Virus record (IMG/VR): IMGVR_UViG_3300029581_000118
Location: 1 to 5,298 of that record
From: a virus
Length of the DNA: 5,298 bases
Direction: 5' to 3' (one strand)
The translations under genes were made by a program, and so were the position numbers. Positions within the stretch are counted from its first letter, which is position 1; each line of letters begins with the position of its first letter. Positions 1 through 5,298 of this stretch are shown one piece after another. The notes beneath the pieces are model-generated. The model searched no databases, was not told the DNA's origin, and was given only the letters and a program-made list of their open reading frames with translations.

Positions 1-763
1 CTCTATGGTTCGTGTTTATTCTACCGCTGCTCAACCTTCTGGCACTATTGGTTTTTTGGCTTCTTCTTTTAGTCGTTCAGATCGTCTTCTTTCTTTTGGT
101 AATACTTCCGGTTCTTCTTCTGGCTCTTCTACTGATACTTTAGATTCTTTCACTTTTTCTTCCCCCTTTTATTCATACGCTTTTGCTATTCGTGAATCTT
201 CTTCTTCTTCTTCAAGTGGCTATGTTTTACAGGGTGGTTACTCTTCGTTTATTGTACCTCCTAATGCTTATTCTAGTGAGAGGTATATTCATCTTAAGTC
301 TACTCGTTATCTTTTGGGAACTCATTCTTTTGTCCCTTATCCGTCTGGATATACTATTCCGTCTTCTGATATCGGATTTGTCTTTGTGAAGCAACCTTCT
401 TCTTCCCCTGTTTATTCTGCTTCTGCCTTTGATACTACCGGTTCTTTCGCTTTTTCTCTCCTTGTTCCTGCTTCTCGTCTTCCTGACATTAAACTTGGTG
501 ACTGGCTCTCCGATTCTCCGGAGGATTTGCAAGATGCTATTACCAATCAATTTCACATTGATTCCGGTACCCTTAAAGATTCTCAGGATAACTTGAACTC
601 TTGGAATTCTGCTTCCTCTGTTGATTCTGACGTTGCCACGGGCGCTTCTGGTCTTCTTGGTGGTCTTTTCCAGAATTTAGGCACGTTTCTCTTTTCTGTT
701 TCTCTCCTTTGCTTCGGTGCTGTTGTTCTCCGAATGCTCATTAGAAAGGCGGTCGACGGATGA
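1..763 (+). CDS. pIII-like minor coat/adsorption protein, C-terminal part; 5' end cut by the window start, continuing from 4784..5298 across the circular junction
   Basis: Frame-2 ORF that runs unbroken from 4784 through the wrap point to the TGA at 761-763, about 392 aa in total. It has Ser/Gly-rich linker tracts (GNTSGSSSGSSTDT, ESSSSSSSGY) and a C-terminal hydrophobic anchor followed by basic residues (LLGGLFQNLGTFLFSVSLLCFGAVVLRMLIRK). This is the architecture of inovirus pIII. Codon usage is strongly T-ending. Confidence 0.6.
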   Translation, partial: SMVRVYSTAAQPSGTIGFLASSFSRSDRLLSFGNTSGSSSGSSTDTLDSFTFSSPFYSYAFAIRESSSSSSSGYVLQGGYSSFIVPPNAYSSERYIHLKSTRYLLGTHSFVPYPSGYTIPSSDIGFVFVKQPSSSPVYSASAFDTTGSFAFSLLVPASRLPDIKLGDWLSDSPEDLQDAITNQFHIDSGTLKDSQDNLNSWNSASSVDSDVATGASGLLGGLFQNLGTFLFSVSLLCFGAVVLRMLIRKAVDG

Positions 764-891
764 CTTTTCTTGATTTCTTCAAATCAGTTTTCGGCCTTTT
801 CGGTTCTGGCGGCGCTCTCGTCATCGCCGTTGTTGTTTTCCTTGTCGGCCTCGGTATTTATAAGTTCGTAAAGGATTGGTTGCCATGGTAG
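760..891 (+). CDS. small hydrophobic virion/membrane protein (43 aa; pVI- or Pf3-type coat-like)
   Basis: ATG at 760 overlaps the pIII stop (ATGA) and follows an AAAGG Shine-Dalgarno about 10 nt upstream. Product is MTFLDFFKSVFGLFGSGGALVIAVVVFLVGLGIYKFVKDWLPW: an acidic N-terminus, a Gly-rich transmembrane core and a basic C-terminus. It is absent from the ORF track only because it is shorter than 60 aa. Confidence 0.45.
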   Translation: MTFLDFFKSVFGLFGSGGALVIAVVVFLVGLGIYKFVKDWLPW

Positions 892-1052
892 ACTTTGTTT
901 CCGCTCTTGGCGTTTTTACCTCGTTTATTGCTAATGTGCTTTCTATTTCCTTTTTTGGCTTCGGTACTTTTGGCAACTTTATTCTGGTTTGTCTTCTGCT
1001 CTCGCTTGTTGGCTTTGTTCTCCGTGGCCTTTGGGATGGAGGTGATAAATAA
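885..1052 (+). CDS. small two-transmembrane-segment hydrophobic protein (55 aa), possibly pVI-like
   Basis: ATG at 885 overlaps the previous stop (ATGGTAG) and has AAGGA about 9 nt upstream. It ends TAATG, overlapping the next start. Product is MVDFVSALGVFTSFIANVLSISFFGFGTFGNFILVCLLLSLVGFVLRGLWDGGDK. Codon usage matches its neighbours, unlike the alternative track ORF 895..1086. Confidence 0.4.
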   Translation: MVDFVSALGVFTSFIANVLSISFFGFGTFGNFILVCLLLSLVGFVLRGLWDGGDK

Positions 1053-1663
1053 TGGAAGTTCCTGCTATTATCAAAACTTGGGTTGATTCTGACGGCGTCA
1101 CCGTCTACACAGTGCAGTATAAAGATGGCACCACTTGTGATATGACCGTCCAGCAGTATGATTATCTCAAGGCGTCTGCGCAGGCTGTCGCCGATATGGA
1201 TTCTAAAGCCTCCGCTGATTCTCAGCCTGCAGAAACTCCTGTTCCCGCTGAGCCTGCACAGAACATCACCGAAAGTCCAGACCTCCGCGACGGCTATGTA
1301 CCGGAGGAAGGCGAATTGCCTTTTGAGGGGAGTTTGACCGCTTATGATGACCGCGCCGCAGATACTCCGGCTTTGTATGCTAATCTCCCTAACGTCTCTA
1401 ATAGTTTCACTGCTATTATGGATTGGTTCGGCGATACGTTTTTCATCGAACGCACTGAGACGGTGCACAAATCCGGCTTTACGTCTGAAAGGTACTCCTA
1501 TAACAGTGCGACTCAACTTATTCAGTTGCCTTATGAGGAAGATTCCACTACTACGTCTCAGGTTCTCAACCCGCAAGCTTGCGTTTCTGCTTTGCTTGTT
1601 GTCCTTGTCTTCATTACTACTGTTACATGGATTAAGAACGCGATTTGGGGGCGCATGAGCTAA
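1052..1663 (+). CDS. hypothetical acidic protein (203 aa) with a single C-terminal transmembrane anchor and no signal peptide
   Basis: Long ORF that is translationally coupled at both ends (TAATG at 1050-1054 and at 1661-1665). It has a beta-rich N-terminal region (KTWVDSDGVTVYTVQYKDGTTCDMTV), a Pro/Ala/Glu linker (AETPVPAEPAQ), and a C-terminal hydrophobic helix (ACVSALLVVLVFITTVTWI) followed by KNAIWGRMS. I do not recognise the family. Confidence 0.6.
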   Translation: MEVPAIIKTWVDSDGVTVYTVQYKDGTTCDMTVQQYDYLKASAQAVADMDSKASADSQPAETPVPAEPAQNITESPDLRDGYVPEEGELPFEGSLTAYDDRAADTPALYANLPNVSNSFTAIMDWFGDTFFIERTETVHKSGFTSERYSYNSATQLIQLPYEEDSTTTSQVLNPQACVSALLVVLVFITTVTWIKNAIWGRMS

Positions 1664-1776
1664 TGGAAATTTTACCCTTGCAGTATTGTTTCGGCATCTT
1701 CTCTGTCCCCGAGATTGGCTATTTTATTGTCTTCGCCGCTGTTTTCTCTATGTTGGTTCTCCTGCTCCGTCCGTGA
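1663..1776 (+). CDS. small hydrophobic protein (37 aa), candidate pVII/pIX-like minor virion protein
   Basis: ATG overlaps the upstream stop (TAATG). Product is MEILPLQYCFGIFSVPEIGYFIVFAAVFSMLVLLLRP. Its size and hydrophobicity resemble inovirus pVII/pIX. The Shine-Dalgarno is weak. Confidence 0.3.
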   Translation: MEILPLQYCFGIFSVPEIGYFIVFAAVFSMLVLLLRP

Positions 1777-1801
1777 CAGGTGCCATAAATATTTTTATGA
1801 A
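1773..1801 (+). promoter_or_regulatory. possible sigma70-type promoter (GTGACA, 17-nt spacer, TATGAA) upstream of the coat-like gene
   Basis: A -35-like GTGACA at 1773-1778 and a -10-like TATGAA at 1796-1801 are separated by 17 nt in an AT-rich stretch. Ff phages have a strong promoter upstream of gene VIII. This is a weak call. Confidence 0.25.
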
Positions 1802-1877
1802 AGGATGATGACTTCAGGGCCCTACTGCTTCTATTCTTGCCACGCTGCTTTCCTTGGTCGGTGAGTTCTTCACGTCG

Positions 1878-2006
1878 ATGATCACTTGGATGGGTCAGCT
1901 CATTGATTTCTATGAGTCTCAGCCCATTCTCCTCGTCTTCGTGATTCTCACTATCGCGGGCATCGTTCTCCGTATCCTTCGCCGCTGGATTCCCGGTCGC
2001 TCCTAA
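1878..2006 (+). CDS. putative major coat protein (pVIII-like, 42 aa from ATG 1878); the start is uncertain
   Basis: Product is MITWMGQLIDFYESQPILLVFVILTIAGIVLRILRRWIPGRS: an acidic N-terminal segment, a hydrophobic core and four basic residues at the C-terminus, typical of a DNA-contacting coat protein. A strong hairpin terminator follows immediately, as after Ff gene VIII. The frame is open back to 1812 but has no canonical start there. Confidence 0.4.
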   Translation: MITWMGQLIDFYESQPILLVFVILTIAGIVLRILRRWIPGRS

Positions 2007-2015
2007 CGATTGAGA

Positions 2016-2062
2016 GAAAACGCCGCCGACCATTTTTAATGGTCGGCGACGTTTTCTCGTTT
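2016..2062 (+). terminator. strong hairpin (19-nt arms with one mismatch, TTT loop) followed by a T-rich tract; likely intrinsic terminator or mRNA-stabilising hairpin after the coat gene
   Basis: GAAAACGCCGCCGACCATT (2016-2034), TTT loop, then AATGGTCGGCGACGTTTTC (2038-2056): 18 of 19 positions pair. The hairpin is followed by TCGTTT. Confidence 0.5.
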
Positions 2063-2079
2063 AGAAAGGATTATATGTT

Positions 2080-2703
2080 ATGCTTTATGGTATTCTTGTC
2101 TTTTGCGTTTGCTGGCTTTTTGTTTATATCGATAACTATTGCAAAAACCCCTACAAACTTGAGGCTGTTGTTGGTTCAAAAGGTTCTGGCAAGTCTTTGT
2201 ATATGTCTCGTGTTGCTGATAAGTGGCTACGTTCTAATAAGGGGCTTATCTATAGCAATATGGGTATTGGTTATGAGTTAGAGCCGGAATACTGGAAACA
2301 AACCTTTATTCCTGATTCTCTTATCCTTATTGATGAGATAGGCGTGCTACACTCTAACCGTGATTTTAAAACTATGCCCCGTGAAGCTGTTGAGTTTTTC
2401 AAAATGCAACGTAAGTATCATTTGACGATTATTGTATCGTCTCAGACCATGGACTTTGATAAAAAGATACGTGATCTCTGTGACCGTATTTATCTTTGCA
2501 ATCGCATTGGCTGGTTTTGTCGCCTTACTCCGTATCGCTCTTGTATCGCTATGGAACATCGCCCCGAGGGAGGGCAAGAACTGGTTAACACGGTGCGCAA
2601 GGCGGGTCGGGCAAGATGGTATACCATCCCCAAGTCCGTTAAGCAGGTAAGTTCATTAGAATACGATACAGAGCAGGTTATCAGCAAAACCCCCTCGAAG
2701 TAA
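2080..2703 (+). CDS. Zot/pI-like P-loop assembly ATPase (207 aa)
   Basis: GAAAGGA Shine-Dalgarno 9 nt upstream of the ATG. Walker A is GSKGSGKS; a Walker-B-like LILIDEIG and a downstream block (KYHLTIIVSSQTMDFDKKIRDLCDRIYLCNRI) parallel the GSGKT, VLDECG and IIFLVQDLSIVDKQAR motifs of M13 pI and Zot. The N-terminus is hydrophobic (LYGILVFCVCWLFVYI). Confidence 0.8.
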   Translation: MLYGILVFCVCWLFVYIDNYCKNPYKLEAVVGSKGSGKSLYMSRVADKWLRSNKGLIYSNMGIGYELEPEYWKQTFIPDSLILIDEIGVLHSNRDFKTMPREAVEFFKMQRKYHLTIIVSSQTMDFDKKIRDLCDRIYLCNRIGWFCRLTPYRSCIAMEHRPEGGQELVNTVRKAGRARWYTIPKSVKQVSSLEYDTEQVISKTPSK

Positions 2704-2784
2704 AAAAACTTCCCCTGAAAAAAAGAAGTAGGCAGTCGCCACGTTTAGTCACGCGATAGCGTCTCCACCGCGTCCCCCGTCCCC

Positions 2785-2803
2785 GCAAGGGCAAAGCCCT
2801 TGC
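2785..2803. repeat. perfect 8-bp stem hairpin, GCAAGGGC-AAA-GCCCTTGC
   Basis: Direct base-pair check within the GC-rich part of the intergenic region. Confidence 0.6.
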
Positions 2804-2856
2804 CCTTCCTAAACAGGCTGGCAGGGGCTTCCGATTCGTAGTGACTGCCGTGACGT

Positions 2857-2895
2857 GGTGGGCGTGCGTGTAATACGCCCACCTTTTTTAAATTT
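2857..2895 (+). terminator. rho-independent terminator-like hairpin plus T tract
   Basis: GGTGGGCGT (2857-2865), a 9-nt loop GCGTGTAAT, then ACGCCCACC (2875-2883) form a 9-bp GC-rich stem. It is followed directly by TTTTTTAAATTT. Confidence 0.5.
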
Positions 2896-2924
2896 CCTCG
2901 GCAGTTCGTGCGCGTGCTGGCCGG

Positions 2925-2941
2925 TGCTCGCTTCGCGAGCA
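2925..2941. repeat. 7-bp hairpin TGCTCGC-TTC-GCGAGCA
   Basis: Inverted repeat that sits immediately upstream of the 12-bp hairpin. Confidence 0.4.
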
Positions 2942-2969
2942 TGAATCAAAAACTTCGTTTTTGATTCAA
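2942..2969. repeat. perfect 12-bp stem hairpin with a TTCG loop: TGAATCAAAAAC-TTCG-GTTTTTGATTCA
   Basis: Exact reverse-complement arms. The TGAATCAAAA motif recurs at 3024-3034 and, in inverted orientation, at 3061-3067. Confidence 0.65.
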
Positions 2970-3023
2970 GGCCATAGGGGCGCCAATTAAGGAAAGTAGG
3001 AAATGGGGATTAATTTTTTTGTC

Positions 3024-3067
3024 TTGAATCAAAATTTTTTTGTCCGCGAAAAAAATTTTAGATTCAA
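3024..3067. repeat. 18-bp A/T-rich palindrome (one bulged A) around a GTCCGCG loop; candidate origin / DNA-unwinding element
   Basis: TTGAATCAAAATTTTTTT (3024-3041) pairs with AAAAAAATTTT-A-GATTCAA (3049-3067). It is almost pure A/T and is flanked by the TGAATCAAAA repeats. Confidence 0.55.
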
Positions 3068-3143
3068 AAAAAAAATTGATCCACATTTGCTACTTTCGGC
3101 GCCCCGTCCATCGTTATTGCGTCTCCCCTTGATAAATTTCCTC

Positions 3144-3172
3144 TTGACAGCTCCTTCATATTGTGTTAATAT
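3144..3172 (+). promoter_or_regulatory. near-consensus sigma70 promoter for the rep gene
   Basis: -35 TTGACA at 3144-3149, a 17-nt spacer, and -10 TAATAT at 3167-3172 preceded by TGt (extended -10). There is an A/T-rich UP-like tract upstream. The predicted transcription start is about 25 nt before the rep Shine-Dalgarno/ATG. Confidence 0.6.
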
Positions 3173-3204
3173 TCAACCATGGAAATGAAAGGTGGTTTTC
3201 TCAC

Positions 3205-4341
3205 ATGAAAACGGTTGTTAAACTTGACTATGCCACGTTTGCTTTTGAACAAGGTTCGATTTCTATTCCTAAAATCGAAGACGCGCTTGCTCAGTGCGAC
3301 TTACATTTTGCTCAGACTTCCAACGCAAGTGAGAATTCCCCCTACAATTCCCCTGCGGGCCTTTTCTTTAAGCCGAACAACGGCGCGAAACAGTCTCCGC
3401 ACTCCTTGCAAGTGTCCGGTCATGGTTGTGAGCTTTTCCGTCCCACATTGCCGCGGCTTGCGTCACTGATGCAGGATGGTCACGAATTCGGTCATTTTTC
3501 TCGTCTCGATTTTTGCTTTGATGTTGTCATGACAAAGCAGCGGTGGCGCGAGTTTTATTTGGGTGTTATTTCTGCTTCTGTGGATGAAATGAATTGCCCT
3601 GAAAAAGCCCGTAAGGTTCGCAAGTTCATGTATCAGGGTTACGGCGATTCTACTACCGTTTATATCGGGCGCAGAACGTCTTCTGCAGTTTTTTGCCGTA
3701 TCTATAATAAATCACTGCAAGACCCTGATAAAAAGCTCTGTACGGCTTCTGGTGAGCTTCTGGATTGCCCCGATGATTCCTATATCATTCGTTACGAGAT
3801 GGAGTTGAAATTTACTTCTCGTGTACGTTCTGGTTCTCGTTCCGTCTATGACCCGTCTCCGCTTTTCTGGTTCTACTATGAAGACCCTGAGAAGCTCTTC
3901 GCTTATCTTCGTAAAGTCTGGAATCGTTACGGGAATGAAACTCTTCTCCCTGATGGCTGGGAAGATATGTATTTTGTGACTGATATTGAAGCTCGCAACA
4001 TTCAGTTTATTAAGGACTTATTGCATCCCCTTAGTAATGACCTTGCTCAAAAGTTCTCCGTTTCTATCCATACCGAAGAACAAAAAATGTCTTATGTTGC
4101 TAATGTCTTTGGGCATCGTATCATTGATATCCTGCTTTATCGTCCTGAGCTTCTTTTTCTCGCTTGTTGTAAGTGGGAGCAGTATTATAATGAGCGTCTT
4201 CCGTTTTCCTCTCTGTCGCTTACACAGGAAGTTGCACAATTCTCTGAGTCTTCGCGCATTGCTGTTGAGGAGTTCCGCGAAGTTGCTGAAGACCCCTCTC
4301 CCTTTAGTGAAGATGGGTTTGATGATATATCTTTATTCTGA
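3205..4341 (+). CDS. rolling-circle replication initiation protein (Rep_trans / gene II-like), about 378 aa
   Basis: GAAAGGTGG Shine-Dalgarno 9 nt upstream of ATG 3205; the track ORF from GTG 3163 would begin inside the promoter -10. The N-terminal KLDYATFAF resembles the conserved N-terminal motif of Rep_trans initiators. TTVYIGRRTS matches the catalytic-Tyr motif (TxYxGxRxS) of that family. The gene sits directly downstream of the hairpin-rich intergenic region. Confidence 0.75.
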   Translation: MKTVVKLDYATFAFEQGSISIPKIEDALAQCDLHFAQTSNASENSPYNSPAGLFFKPNNGAKQSPHSLQVSGHGCELFRPTLPRLASLMQDGHEFGHFSRLDFCFDVVMTKQRWREFYLGVISASVDEMNCPEKARKVRKFMYQGYGDSTTVYIGRRTSSAVFCRIYNKSLQDPDKKLCTASGELLDCPDDSYIIRYEMELKFTSRVRSGSRSVYDPSPLFWFYYEDPEKLFAYLRKVWNRYGNETLLPDGWEDMYFVTDIEARNIQFIKDLLHPLSNDLAQKFSVSIHTEEQKMSYVANVFGHRIIDILLYRPELLFLACCKWEQYYNERLPFSSLSLTQEVAQFSESSRIAVEEFREVAEDPSPFSEDGFDDISLF

Positions 4342-4359
4342 TGAAAGGATGGTCGCTCT

Positions 4360-4602
4360 ATGAAAGTTACTGTAGTTGGTAAGTCCCGCCGCGCTGGTAC
4401 ATCTAAGCAGGGCAAAGACTATGATTTTACTACTCTCATGGCCGAATATTCGATGCGTGCAAACGATGACAATGACGGCGTACAGGTTGATAGAATCAAT
4501 GTCGATTCTCGCATGATGCCGTATGCGCTCATTGTCGTTGGCGCTACGTATGACCTCGACTTTGACCGCAACGGATATCTCCTTGGAATTGAGGAAGTTT
4601 AA
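4360..4602 (+). CDS. gene V-like ssDNA-binding protein (80 aa)
   Basis: AAAGGA Shine-Dalgarno 10 nt upstream. The N-terminus MKVTVVGKSRRAGTSKQGKDYDF parallels M13 gV MIKVEIKPSQAQFTTRSGVSRQGKPYSL, sharing the S-(R/K)-QGK-x-Y motif. Its size and its position right after rep also fit. Confidence 0.7.
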   Translation: MKVTVVGKSRRAGTSKQGKDYDFTTLMAEYSMRANDDNDGVQVDRINVDSRMMPYALIVVGATYDLDFDRNGYLLGIEEV

Positions 4603-4638
4603 CTTCCTTTGTTCAAACCCGAATTTCATTTCCTATGG

Positions 4639-4658
4639 GAGAGCGGTTCGCCGCTCTC
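4639..4658 (+). other. perfect 8-bp hairpin with a TTCG loop: GAGAGCGG-TTCG-CCGCTCTC
   Basis: Exact inverted repeat between the gene V stop and the tRNA, with a UUCG tetraloop if transcribed. It could be a processing or stability element, or weak terminator. Confidence 0.5.
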
Positions 4659-4662
4659 ACAT

Positions 4663-4736
4663 GGCGGGGTGGTGCAATGGTAGCACGTCGCGCTCTGAAC
4701 GCGAAGCTGTAGGTTCAAATCCTAACCCCGCAACCA
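4663..4736 (+). tRNA. tRNA with anticodon CUG (Gln-like), 74 nt including an encoded CCA; G1-A72 and G49-A65 are mismatched
   Basis: Manual cloverleaf: acceptor GGCGGGG paired with CCCCGCA (6 of 7 positions); U8; D-stem GTGC/GCAC with loop AATGGTA (G18G19 present); anticodon stem TCGCG/CGCGA with loop CTCTGAA (U33, anticodon CTG, A37); 4-nt variable loop; T-arm GTAGG-TTCAAAT-CCTAA with the consensus GGTTCAAATCC; discriminator A followed by CCA. Confidence 0.6.
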
Positions 4737-4783
4737 AAACGGATTGACCTCCGTTATTCGATGCCGCGAAAGGTGGTGGCGAA

Positions 4784-5298
4784 GTGAAGAAAATGCAGCG
4801 GCGTTTTTATAAGCGCTTCGCCGCCCTTGTCGCGGCTCTGACGGTTTCTTTTTCTTTGTGTACTCCTTGTTTTGCTGGATTTGAAACGGAAGCTGATATG
4901 CCATCTTTGGATGATTTTTATAAAAATCATGGCTCTTGGTATGTTTGGCGTTCTGCTACTCTTTCTGGTTTCTCTTATTATGAGTTGCTTTGCTCTCCTA
5001 TTTCTGTTTCTGGCACTTCTTATTCTCTGCCTTATTCGGTTACTTATTCTACAGATGCGTTTGATGTTTCTTATCTAGCTAATGATTCTGGCTTAGCTTA
5101 TGATTACGCTTGCGCTTTTCCTCTTCCTCTCCGTGGTGCTTCTGGTTATTGGTCTGAATTACCTTCTTTCCCTATTGGTATGAGCACGAATTTTGAAGCC
5201 TCTATGGTTCGTGTTTATTCTACCGCTGCTCAACCTTCTGGCACTATTGGTTTTTTGGCTTCTTCTTTTAGTCGTTCAGATCGTCTTCTTTCTTTTGG
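4784..5298 (+). CDS. pIII-like minor coat/adsorption protein, N-terminal part with signal peptide; runs off the window end and continues at 100..763
   Basis: GTG 4784 lies 7 nt after the AAGGTGG Shine-Dalgarno; the alternative ATG is at 4793. The N-terminus MKKMQRRFYKRFAALVAALTVSFSLCTPCFA-GFETEAD is a classic Sec signal peptide with a basic n-region, a hydrophobic core and an AxA-like cleavage site. The frame stays open to the window end and is identical to 1..99 across the junction. Confidence 0.65.
   Translation, partial: MKKMQRRFYKRFAALVAALTVSFSLCTPCFAGFETEADMPSLDDFYKNHGSWYVWRSATLSGFSYYELLCSPISVSGTSYSLPYSVTYSTDAFDVSYLANDSGLAYDYACAFPLPLRGASGYWSELPSFPIGMSTNFEASMVRVYSTAAQPSGTIGFLASSFSRSDRLLSF
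5200..5298. repeat. terminal redundancy of the window: 5200-5298 is identical to 1-99, so the molecule is circular (about 5,199 nt) or tandemly repeated
   Basis: Base-by-base comparison of both ends. CTCTATGGTTCGTG...TCTTTCTTTTGG is present at both. Confidence 0.85.

Follow-up and report, generated by a model that had tools for sequence, protein, structure and literature searches.

A selected tRNA-Gln(CUG) gene in the operon of a 5.2-kb inovirus genome, and its possible double use as tRNA and processing point

Introduction

Why would a filamentous phage with a genome of 5.2 kb set aside 1.4% of it for a tRNA gene? This question is raised by a viral sequence of 5,298 nucleotides, IMGVR_UViG_3300029581_000118 (positions 1 to 5,298 of that IMG/VR record; the whole stretch will be called the window), in which a 74-nt tRNA gene with the anticodon CUG lies between a gene for an RstB-like protein, similar to those binding single-stranded DNA (ssDNA), and a gene for an adsorption-protein-like product. 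According to a 2014 study, tRNA genes are lacking in ssDNA phages (PMC4032129), and a strictly selected tRNA in a 5.2-kb genome contradicts this usual view; such an element must earn its place.

The explanation that we favour, with a confidence slightly above even, is that this gene is a selected, host-derived tRNA-Gln(CUG) located inside the operon, serving both as a tRNA and as the point at which the transcript is processed into a replication part and a virion part. The following sections consider the gene and its conservation, the type of tRNA it represents, the operon around it, its distant relatives and its possible use in decoding, with each alternative weighed where the evidence that bears on it is given.

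The window is a member of the WW-nAnB / X53411 family of inoviruses. WW-nAnB was initially mistaken for an agent of non-A, non-B hepatitis, before it was described in 2011 as an abundant sewage inovirus belonging to the Inoviridae, in an article whose main text leaves the tRNA unmentioned (PMC3187576). Viruses of this type are among the most abundant filamentous phages of sewage, and the relatives considered here come from pig samples and many metagenome assemblies. The bare observation of a tRNA is already on record, since the supplement to a 2019 in silico survey of 47 Inoviridae genomes has tRNA predictions for 3 of them, which are precisely the WW-nAnB records (among them KJ003982 with tRNA-Gln(ctg) and JN402401 with tRNA-Ser(act)), and gives the prediction without analysis of conservation, covariation, mismatch, hairpin, host or function (PMC6409571). 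The statement of the original prediction, made from the letters of the window, that tRNA genes are very unusual in inoviruses is therefore fair, yet the gene had already appeared in a published supplement. A literature search on inoviruses together with tRNA-Gln found nothing. New here are the conservation and covariation across the whole family, the invariance of the mismatch, the existence of two alleles, the operon layout, and the hairpin-tRNA cassette with its spread to Oscillospiraceae prophages with altered anticodons.

The tRNA gene and its conservation

4663 to 4736, + strand: tRNA-Gln(CUG), 74 nt (ARAGORN; Rfam RF00005; relatives; covariation)

ARAGORN calls a single gene in the window, a tRNA-Gln with the anticodon ctg at 4663-4736 (+), and the Rfam family RF00005 matches 4663-4733 over the full model (positions 1-71) with 55.4 bits and an E value of 2.7e-10, against a gathering score of 29, which confirms the tRNA gene proposed for this place. 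It comprises a body (4663-4733), an encoded CCA (4734-4736), the anticodon CTG (4695-4697) in a canonical 7-nt loop, CUCUGAA, a D-loop of 7 nt and a variable loop of 4 nt. All of the features listed for it earlier are present in the sequence: U8, G18G19, U33, a purine at 37 (A37), the GGTTCAAATCC T-arm, the discriminator A73, the CCA, and the two mismatches G1·A72 and G49·A65.

The same 74-nt tRNA(CUG) occupies the same place in all 27 complete related genomes, namely four of four GenBank relatives, 22 of the 23 IMG/VR relatives found through their Rep proteins, and L154, a recombinant with a divergent Rep; the lone IMG/VR relative without it, L026, is a truncated contig. Among the 23 distinct copies, standard pairs fill 91.7% of the cells, against 33-54% in controls where the 3' partners were slid by one to three columns, and double compensatory changes occur in 11 of 21 pairs. 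All five pairs of the anticodon stem and four of the five in the T-stem covary, and none of 500 shuffles reached the observed covariation score. The positions that never vary are C34-U35-G36-A37, G18G19, the core of the T-loop, acceptor pairs 2-6, G1·A72 and A73-CCA, and U33 is retained in 22 of the 23 copies (L019 differs). The combination of compensated changes with invariant functional positions argues that the gene is under purifying selection as a tRNA.

The two mismatches, which had been taken as signs of slight degeneracy or of a non-canonical role, fared differently. G1·A72 is found in 23 of 23 distinct copies, which refutes degeneracy for this pair, and because of this invariance it is a selected feature and not decay. 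G49·A65 is indeed present in the window, but it is specific to one allele, other alleles having G:C or U:A.

Two alleles of the tRNA can be distinguished, with 55 of 74 consensus positions in common, on backbones that are 83-94% identical over the upstream 300 nt; the differences between alleles are confined to compensated stem positions and the variable loop. The diverged allele was compared with the window in L008, L014, L016, L019, L021 and L027. This pattern indicates either a cassette-like exchange or a very fast, compensated evolution of the tRNA.

As a separate observation, the tRNA of L020 (1577-1650), which by its coordinates answers to JN402401, the original WW-nAnB, has small indels in the D-loop and anticodon loop and is called by ARAGORN as tRNA-??? 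(actg); these indels are probably sequencing errors of the 2011 assembly rather than biology.

Conserved folding could also be of use in the DNA itself, with the cloverleaf and its hairpins acting in the packaged + ssDNA as an origin for the complementary strand or as a packaging signal. The + strand is T-rich in base composition, as expected for the packaged ssDNA strand of such a virion, the G·T pairs found in its stems place the selection on the + sense strand, and replicons with Rep_trans initiators do use folded single-strand origins. Against this, the sequence has the tRNA-specific residues U8, G18G19, U33 and T54-C56, the anticodon and the CCA, and is homologous to bacterial tRNA-Gln genes, and the inverted repeat at 2975-3106 suits the part of origin or packaging hairpin far better. 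We consider a DNA-level role very improbable.

A glutamine-type body with an initiator-like acceptor end

The origin of the tRNA was approached by scanning the genomes of 185,579 species with the 5' third of the gene, leaving position 1 and the anticodon free. Among the matches listed, 103 of 120 are tRNA-Gln genes, 57 with UUG and 46 with CUG, and they have the same 74-nt architecture with identities up to 86% (L050). Two chromosomal tRNA-Gln(CUG) genes of Oscillospiraceae, L077 and L132, have the same body type. Judged by these matches, the body of the phage tRNA is a genuine bacterial tRNA-Gln type and of host origin. This type is widespread in bacteria (L033-L152) and reads U1-GCGGGG...CCCCGC-A72-G73, with the D-arm GUGY-AAYGGUA-RCAC.

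The acceptor end follows other rules. Among the matches listed, 94 chromosomal tRNA-Gln genes have an acceptor end that could be parsed, all with a Watson-Crick U1:A72 or A1:U72 pair and 90 with G73; in place of the weak Watson-Crick pair 1:72 and G73 typical of tRNA-Gln, the phage tRNA has G1·A72 and A73, a combination seen only once among those matches, in L111, where it lies inside a prophage. The GlnRS of Escherichia coli opens the 1:72 pair. Bacterial GatCAB tells U1-A72 from G1-C72, for which reason tRNA-Gln identity is compatible with a 1:72 pair that is weak or missing, and the G1·A72 mismatch may satisfy this "not G1-C72" rule (PMC2811023).

The same acceptor end brings the initiator tRNA into the discussion. 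In BLAST searches of phage records and of 5,426 E. coli genomes (median of four matching places per genome), every match was to a tRNA-Met gene, and the match in Salmonella, between mltA and amiC, has the initiator hallmarks and is 79% identical to the phage tRNA. The identity to E. coli tRNA-Gln and elongator tRNA-Met is 57-60%, and no tRNA-Gln was matched in E. coli or Salmonella even at E values up to 10. The reason why these enterobacterial searches report only tRNA-Met is that the acceptor stem of the tRNA-Gln type described above matches that of the initiator tRNA. An origin from an initiator gene, considered because of the 79-82% identity to the enterobacterial initiator genes, is ruled out by the tRNA-Gln matches to the body in the genome scan.

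A different matter is whether the molecule behaves as a special-purpose, initiator-like or non-elongator tRNA, whose glutamine-charged form would be formylated for initiation at CAG or else be kept off EF-Tu. The initiator determinants unpaired 1·72, G2:C71, C3:G70 and A73 are all present and invariant across the family, the matches in E. coli and Salmonella are restricted to initiator genes, and a mismatch N1·A72 with A73 occurs in three divergent lineages (G·A in the WW-nAnB clade and in L111, C·A in L164), compared with none of the 94 parsed chromosomal tRNA-Gln genes. Against these stand the tRNA-Gln body, with a common acceptor-stem sequence as the explanation of the likeness; the anticodon, CUG throughout instead of CAU; the anticodon stem, which lacks the G:C triplet 29-31:39-41 and has pairs that vary (GC, CG, AU and others); and the pair 11:24, which is U:A in all copies, the elongator type, and not A11:U24. 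Furthermore, the gene past the tRNA starts with GTG, TTG or ATG behind a good Shine-Dalgarno (SD) sequence in all versions, and ordinary starts are available to the other genes of the window, in which no systematic scan for SD-preceded CAG starts was made. Taken together, these observations make an initiator-like use highly unlikely.

When viral contigs were scanned with the 5' pattern of the tRNA, only unrelated phage tRNAs with the anticodon CAU were found, mostly with an initiator-like C1·A72. Three tRNA-like genes with the anticodon CAU from Bacilli and other metagenome-assembled genomes (L114, L127, L142) share the 5' third, with a shortened T-arm and a 3' end in ...GACCGCAACCA; ARAGORN misses two of these three odd genes.

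The operon and the flanking hairpins

To follow the possible fate of the tRNA transcript, the features around it are given here in the order in which the predicted transcription runs through the circular genome.

3144 to 3172, + strand: best sigma-70-like promoter, TTGACA-17-TAATAT with TG (consensus scan), presumed start of the operon
3205 to 4341, + strand: Rep_trans rolling-circle replication initiator (Pfam PF02486, phrog_27843)
4360 to 4602, + strand: gene for an 80-aa RstB-like (ssDNA-binding-like) protein, the last before the tRNA (phrog_929 RstB, E 6e-4)
4639 to 4658, + strand: GC-rich hairpin of 8 bp around the loop TTCG, 4 nt ahead of the 5' end of the tRNA (folds)
4738 to 4755, + strand: 6-bp hairpin with the loop TTGACC, just past the CCA (folds)
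4784 to 5298, + strand: 5' part of the gene for a 392-aa, adsorption-protein-like product with a signal peptide (phrog_24417), starting 48 nt past the tRNA
1 to 763, + strand: remainder of the same gene, the open reading frame (ORF) of which reads through the circular junction
2024 to 2048, + strand: intrinsic-terminator-like hairpin past a 50-aa coat-like gene (consensus scan)
2080 to 2703, + strand: Zot / pI-like assembly ATPase (Pfam PF05707, phrog_25712)
2857 to 2883, + strand: strong intrinsic-terminator-like hairpin with a T-run past zot (consensus scan), presumed end of the operon

The tRNA has coding genes of the same strand on either side and no predicted promoter or terminator of its own. 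Consensus scans, which are weak evidence alone, found neither a promoter nor a terminator between the ssDNA-binding-like gene and the tRNA, and two further, weaker terminator-like matches lie inside rep on the + strand.

Both of the hairpins that had been noticed beside the tRNA exist; when 4603-4783 is folded to minimum energy, the structure contains the two of them and the cloverleaf. The upstream one is present in every member of the family, 3-4 nt ahead of the tRNA, in at least two unrelated sequence versions, GAGAGCGG...CCGCTCTC and GGCCGC...GCGGCC, and in one version both partners of a pair have changed in compensation (L012); several other changes are compatible with wobble pairing. Residue -1 of the tRNA is T without exception in the WW-nAnB clade. 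The downstream 6-bp hairpin is kept in most family members and is absent from the MT135293-type relatives.

The single strong promoter, the positions of the terminators and the conserved hairpin fit co-transcription of the tRNA followed by its excision by RNase P. According to the explanation that we favour, the tRNA would derive from the U1/A1-GCGGGG type of tRNA-Gln found in many bacteria, including Oscillospiraceae, and would be transcribed within a single operon that runs from the rep promoter to the terminators past the coat-like gene and zot. Host RNase P would then cut at the 5' end of the tRNA, and 3' trimming would halt at the encoded CCA; the released 74-nt tRNA would be charged with glutamine and read CAG codons. 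The same cuts would part the mRNA for Rep and the ssDNA-binding-like protein from that for the adsorption, coat and assembly proteins, and the former would end 3-4 nt past the GC-rich hairpin, by which it would be shielded from 3' exonucleases. The idea that the tRNA punctuates the mRNA was among those of the original prediction, and the predicted operon layout and the conserved hairpin agree with it, the cleavage itself remaining predicted.

Some of these observations suit equally a view in which hairpin and tRNA are mainly a cis-acting device for mRNA processing or stability that sets the levels of the replication and virion mRNAs, decoding being secondary or dispensable. The location inside one operon, with no predicted promoter or terminator for the tRNA alone, is what such a device would have; the hairpin has been kept through a complete turnover of its sequence, and the T at -1 is invariant. 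The main point against it is that C34-U35-G36-A37 is invariant in the WW-nAnB clade though the anticodon stems have turned over completely. We regard this view as possible but rather unlikely, and return to it below with the distant relatives.

Distant relatives, the host lineage and the attP question

The combination of hairpin and tRNA is also found outside the WW-nAnB clade. An 8-kb slice, L111, taken from an Oscillospiraceae contig of 169 kb, holds an inovirus prophage, in which the order is a homologue of the ssDNA-binding-like gene, a Rep of another family (REP_ORF2-G2P, where the window has Rep_trans), a GGGGC-TTCG-GCCCC hairpin, a tRNA(CUG), an SD sequence, a 921-aa signal-peptide protein, small membrane proteins and a Zot that is 26% identical to that of the window. 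Its tRNA (2174-2247) has CUG, G1·A72, A73 and CCA. The same layout and hairpin occur in L116, from the isolate Oscillibacter ruminantium GH1, the homologous tRNA of which (1971-2044) reads CGU; the ends of this prophage fall outside the 8-kb slice. The RstB-like protein has homologues with 31-36% identity in both prophages, and their Zot proteins are 26-39% identical to that of the window. The anticodon UGU is found in L092 (7884-7954, - strand) and L100 (1033-1103), which like L111 and L116 are inovirus prophages or contigs from genomes of the Oscillospiraceae type, whereas L164 has a tRNA with CUG and a C1·A72 mismatch, followed by an SD sequence and a signal-peptide ORF. All of these distant tRNAs score 43-56 bits, above the Rfam threshold. 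Position 37 is a pyrimidine in L111, L116, L092 and L100, unusual for a decoding tRNA, and position 73 is C in L116, L092 and L100.

Other relatives do without the module: it is absent from L161-163, whose Zot is 65% identical to that of L111, from L183-186, whose Rep is 53-59% identical to that of L116, and from the small bajarodino and Dulem inoviruses. Scans of viral and metagenome sequences with the L116-type Rep returned four loci, all without the tRNA, and a scan with a Zot alignment added at least a few extra relatives. From these comparisons, the hairpin-tRNA cassette appears to be a mobile module, always placed directly ahead of the adsorption-protein gene.

The mainly cis-acting device gains from this set of relatives, since the module keeps its place ahead of the adsorption-protein gene despite a different Rep family and gene order, and since cloverleaf, CCA, D-loop and T-loop are all retained in the distant tRNAs while the anticodon changes among CUG, CGU and UGU and position 37 is a pyrimidine; it loses in that the module is dispensed with by close kin of L111 and L116. 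A broader proposal, which we put forward tentatively and at clearly less than even confidence, is that the cassette is a mobile, RNase P-dependent "operon splitter" of filamentous phages infecting Clostridia, with the hairpin as a 3' cap. Passing among phages whose Rep proteins are unrelated, it would exploit the tRNA-maturing enzymes of the host to make the replication mRNA independent of the virion mRNA; it would be a glutamine decoder in the WW-nAnB clade and have a drifting anticodon and position 37 elsewhere, and the 1·72 mismatch and A73 would be tuned not for decoding but for processing or for evading the normal fates of a tRNA.

The original prediction also raised the possibility that the gene is an attP site, or the remnant of one, captured when the phage integrated at such a gene of its host. 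Integration at tRNA genes is common among temperate phages and occurs in some inoviruses, and the body of this tRNA is clearly host-derived. However, searches with Pfam and PHROGs reveal no integrase, recombinase or transposase among the ORFs of the window; the 277 homologues of its Rep are all on contigs of ~5 kb, none of them in a chromosome, which means that no integrated copies of the WW-nAnB clade were seen; and the gene is of full length, under purifying selection with covariation. In L111, where the GC content is 0.58-0.67 over the first 800 nt and 0.39-0.55 afterward, the tRNA lies at least 1.3 kb within the prophage and is flanked left and right by phage genes, no repeats of tRNA fragments are found, and the arrangement in L116 is alike. 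The attP reading was consequently dropped, on the strength of the lack of integrated clade copies and of the internal position in L111, and we rate it the least probable of all.

Two observations on mobility and regulation in these relatives may be added. An IS30-type transposase (HTH_38 and rve domains) lies beside the inovirus-like region and the tRNA in L092 (42-1070) and L100 (1384-2445) and may be the integration route of this sub-lineage. At 7871-7956 of L111, near a gene for a RepB-like regulator at the far end of the prophage, the partly palindromic 21-nt sequence CATACACATAGGTGTATATTT occurs twice at a spacing of 65 nt and may be an operator or an iteron.

As for the host, the lineage is tentatively assigned to the Oscillospiraceae, i.e., gut Clostridia, the assignment being tentative because it is based on distant relatives and on the tRNA type. 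The cultured O. ruminantium GH1, with its related prophage at ~408-416 kb of NZ_DF158898.1, could serve as an experimental system.

Codon use and decoding

If the tRNA is charged and used, its codons deserve attention. CAG is the glutamine codon that these phages prefer, which speaks for decoding: it makes up 0.61-0.62 of the glutamine codons in the window and 0.61 family-wide (the corresponding values for GAG and AAG are 0.40 and 0.53), with ~28 CAG codons per genome. The anticodons CGU and UGU of the distant relatives track the use of ACG and ACA weakly or not at all. Compensation of a codon bias, the first of the readings once proposed for this gene, was rejected as its explanation because the codon counts of the family and outgroup fail to separate phages with the tRNA from those without it, and as a rationale it is weakly supported. 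The other half of that reading, that the gene is a functional phage tRNA, is borne out by the covariation, the invariant anticodon loop and acceptor end, and the two alleles. Since RNase P ignores the anticodon, the invariance of the anticodon and A37 points to selection on charging or decoding.

Several considerations weigh against the favoured explanation of a tRNA-Gln that is both decoder and processing point. In tRNA-less relatives the CAG fraction is 0.41-0.67, which does not separate them from the tRNA bearers, so that codon usage offers no clear reason for a tRNA-Gln, a finding that the cis-acting device accommodates. A tRNA-Gln(CUG) is already present in the likely host lineage, which makes the gain from an extra copy doubtful. 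At the identity positions 1:72 and 73 the phage tRNA deviates from all 94 parsed chromosomal tRNA-Gln genes, and in E. coli a 1·72 mismatch with G2:C71, C3:G70 and A73 leads to formylation and to weaker binding by EF-Tu, determinants that would oppose the use of the tRNA as an elongator. Homologous tRNAs of distant relatives have other anticodons (CGU, UGU) or a pyrimidine at 37, and decoding may therefore not be what holds the module in place everywhere. Finally, we infer from sequence that the tRNA is transcribed, processed by RNase P and at its 3' end, charged with glutamine and employed by elongating ribosomes, and that the hairpin stabilises the mRNA; the encoded CCA makes it uncertain how a Firmicute host would cut the 3' end.

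The rest of the genome

The context in which the tRNA was first noticed, that of a filamentous phage, is borne out. The ends of the window carry a 99-nt exact direct repeat (1-99 = 5200-5298), which makes it a circular assembly of 5,199 nt, and the ORF list, Pfam and PHROGs place all credible genes on the + strand, including the Rep, the ssDNA-binding-like protein, the signal-peptide protein and Zot. Several small hydrophobic, coat-like proteins are also encoded, among them that of the 50-aa coat-like gene. The small circular genome, rolling-circle Rep, Zot/pI, coat-like proteins and single-strand gene set together identify an inovirus (Tubulavirales). The rep gene is likely to have its true start at 3205, its homologues being 378 aa long.

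At the DNA level the window is ~81% identical to four porcine "Inovirus sp." records of GenBank (L001-L004, i.e., MT135292, MT135293, MT135305 and MT135296), which are without a tRNA annotation. These records are marked UNVERIFIED and use gene names in the microvirus style, "protein A/C/F/H".

The adsorption-protein-like gene is serine-rich and hypervariable, with 53-83% DNA identity among relatives (in which the region 60-600 nt past the tRNA was considered) against ~90% elsewhere in the genome, as expected of a receptor-binding protein under diversifying selection or recombination. The terminator-like hairpin at 2024-2048 recalls the terminator that follows gene VIII in the Ff phages, where it raises the mRNA of the coat protein over that of the downstream assembly genes.

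From the zot terminator to the rep promoter extends the sole long non-coding region, which is occupied by a near-perfect inverted repeat of ~130 nt (2975-3106) that is AT-rich (~25% GC) and is probably the replication origin or packaging signal. Matches of this segment to plant microRNA families, on both strands, at no more than 48 bits and under the cut-offs, were discarded as artefacts of an AT-rich inverted repeat.

Comparison with known systems

The closest known system is that of WW-nAnB / X53411 itself (JN402401, KJ003981, KJ003982), which belongs to the same family and to which L020 and L013 correspond by their tRNA coordinates. Among other phages, the tRNAs of the dsDNA phages T4 and T5 are likewise host-derived, co-transcribed, matured by host RNase P and presumed to supplement or replace host tRNAs; unlike them, the window has one tRNA in a 5.2-kb ssDNA phage, between the essential modules of its only operon.

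Compared with the chromosomal U1/A1-GCGGGG tRNA-Gln of Patescibacteria, Chloroflexota and Oscillospiraceae, the phage tRNA has in common the D-arm, T-arm, acceptor pairs 2-7 and the CUG/UUG loop; among the matches listed, the chromosomal genes have U1:A72 or A1:U72 and mostly G73, whereas the phage copies have G1·A72 or C1·A72 and A73. With the bacterial initiator tRNA-fMet it shares a near-identical acceptor end (1·72 mismatch, G2:C71, C3:G70, G4:C69, A73, CCA) and 79% identity, but the initiator has CAU, a G:C triplet in the anticodon stem and A11:U24, where the phage tRNA has CUG, no conserved triplet and U11:A24. The invariant unpaired 1·72 together with A73 is thus a natural test case in which tRNA-Gln identity, formylation and EF-Tu binding can be set against each other.

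Finally, the tRNA punctuation of animal mitochondria, of bacterial transcripts that join tRNA and mRNA, such as the tufB operon, and of MALAT1-mascRNA is based on a tRNA or tRNA-like fold within a long transcript, and the same is predicted here. In those systems cleavage by RNase P defines the ends of the mRNAs, and in MALAT1, as with the hairpin here, the cut is directly preceded by a stable structure. To our knowledge, tRNA punctuation is undescribed for filamentous phages, of which the Ff phages use processing by RNase E; if true, splitting of the operon by RNase P would be a new answer to the mRNA-processing problem that Ff solves in that way. The element of the window differs from the established cases in being known from its sequence and in keeping a canonical anticodon loop and an encoded CCA, for which reason it probably also works as a tRNA.

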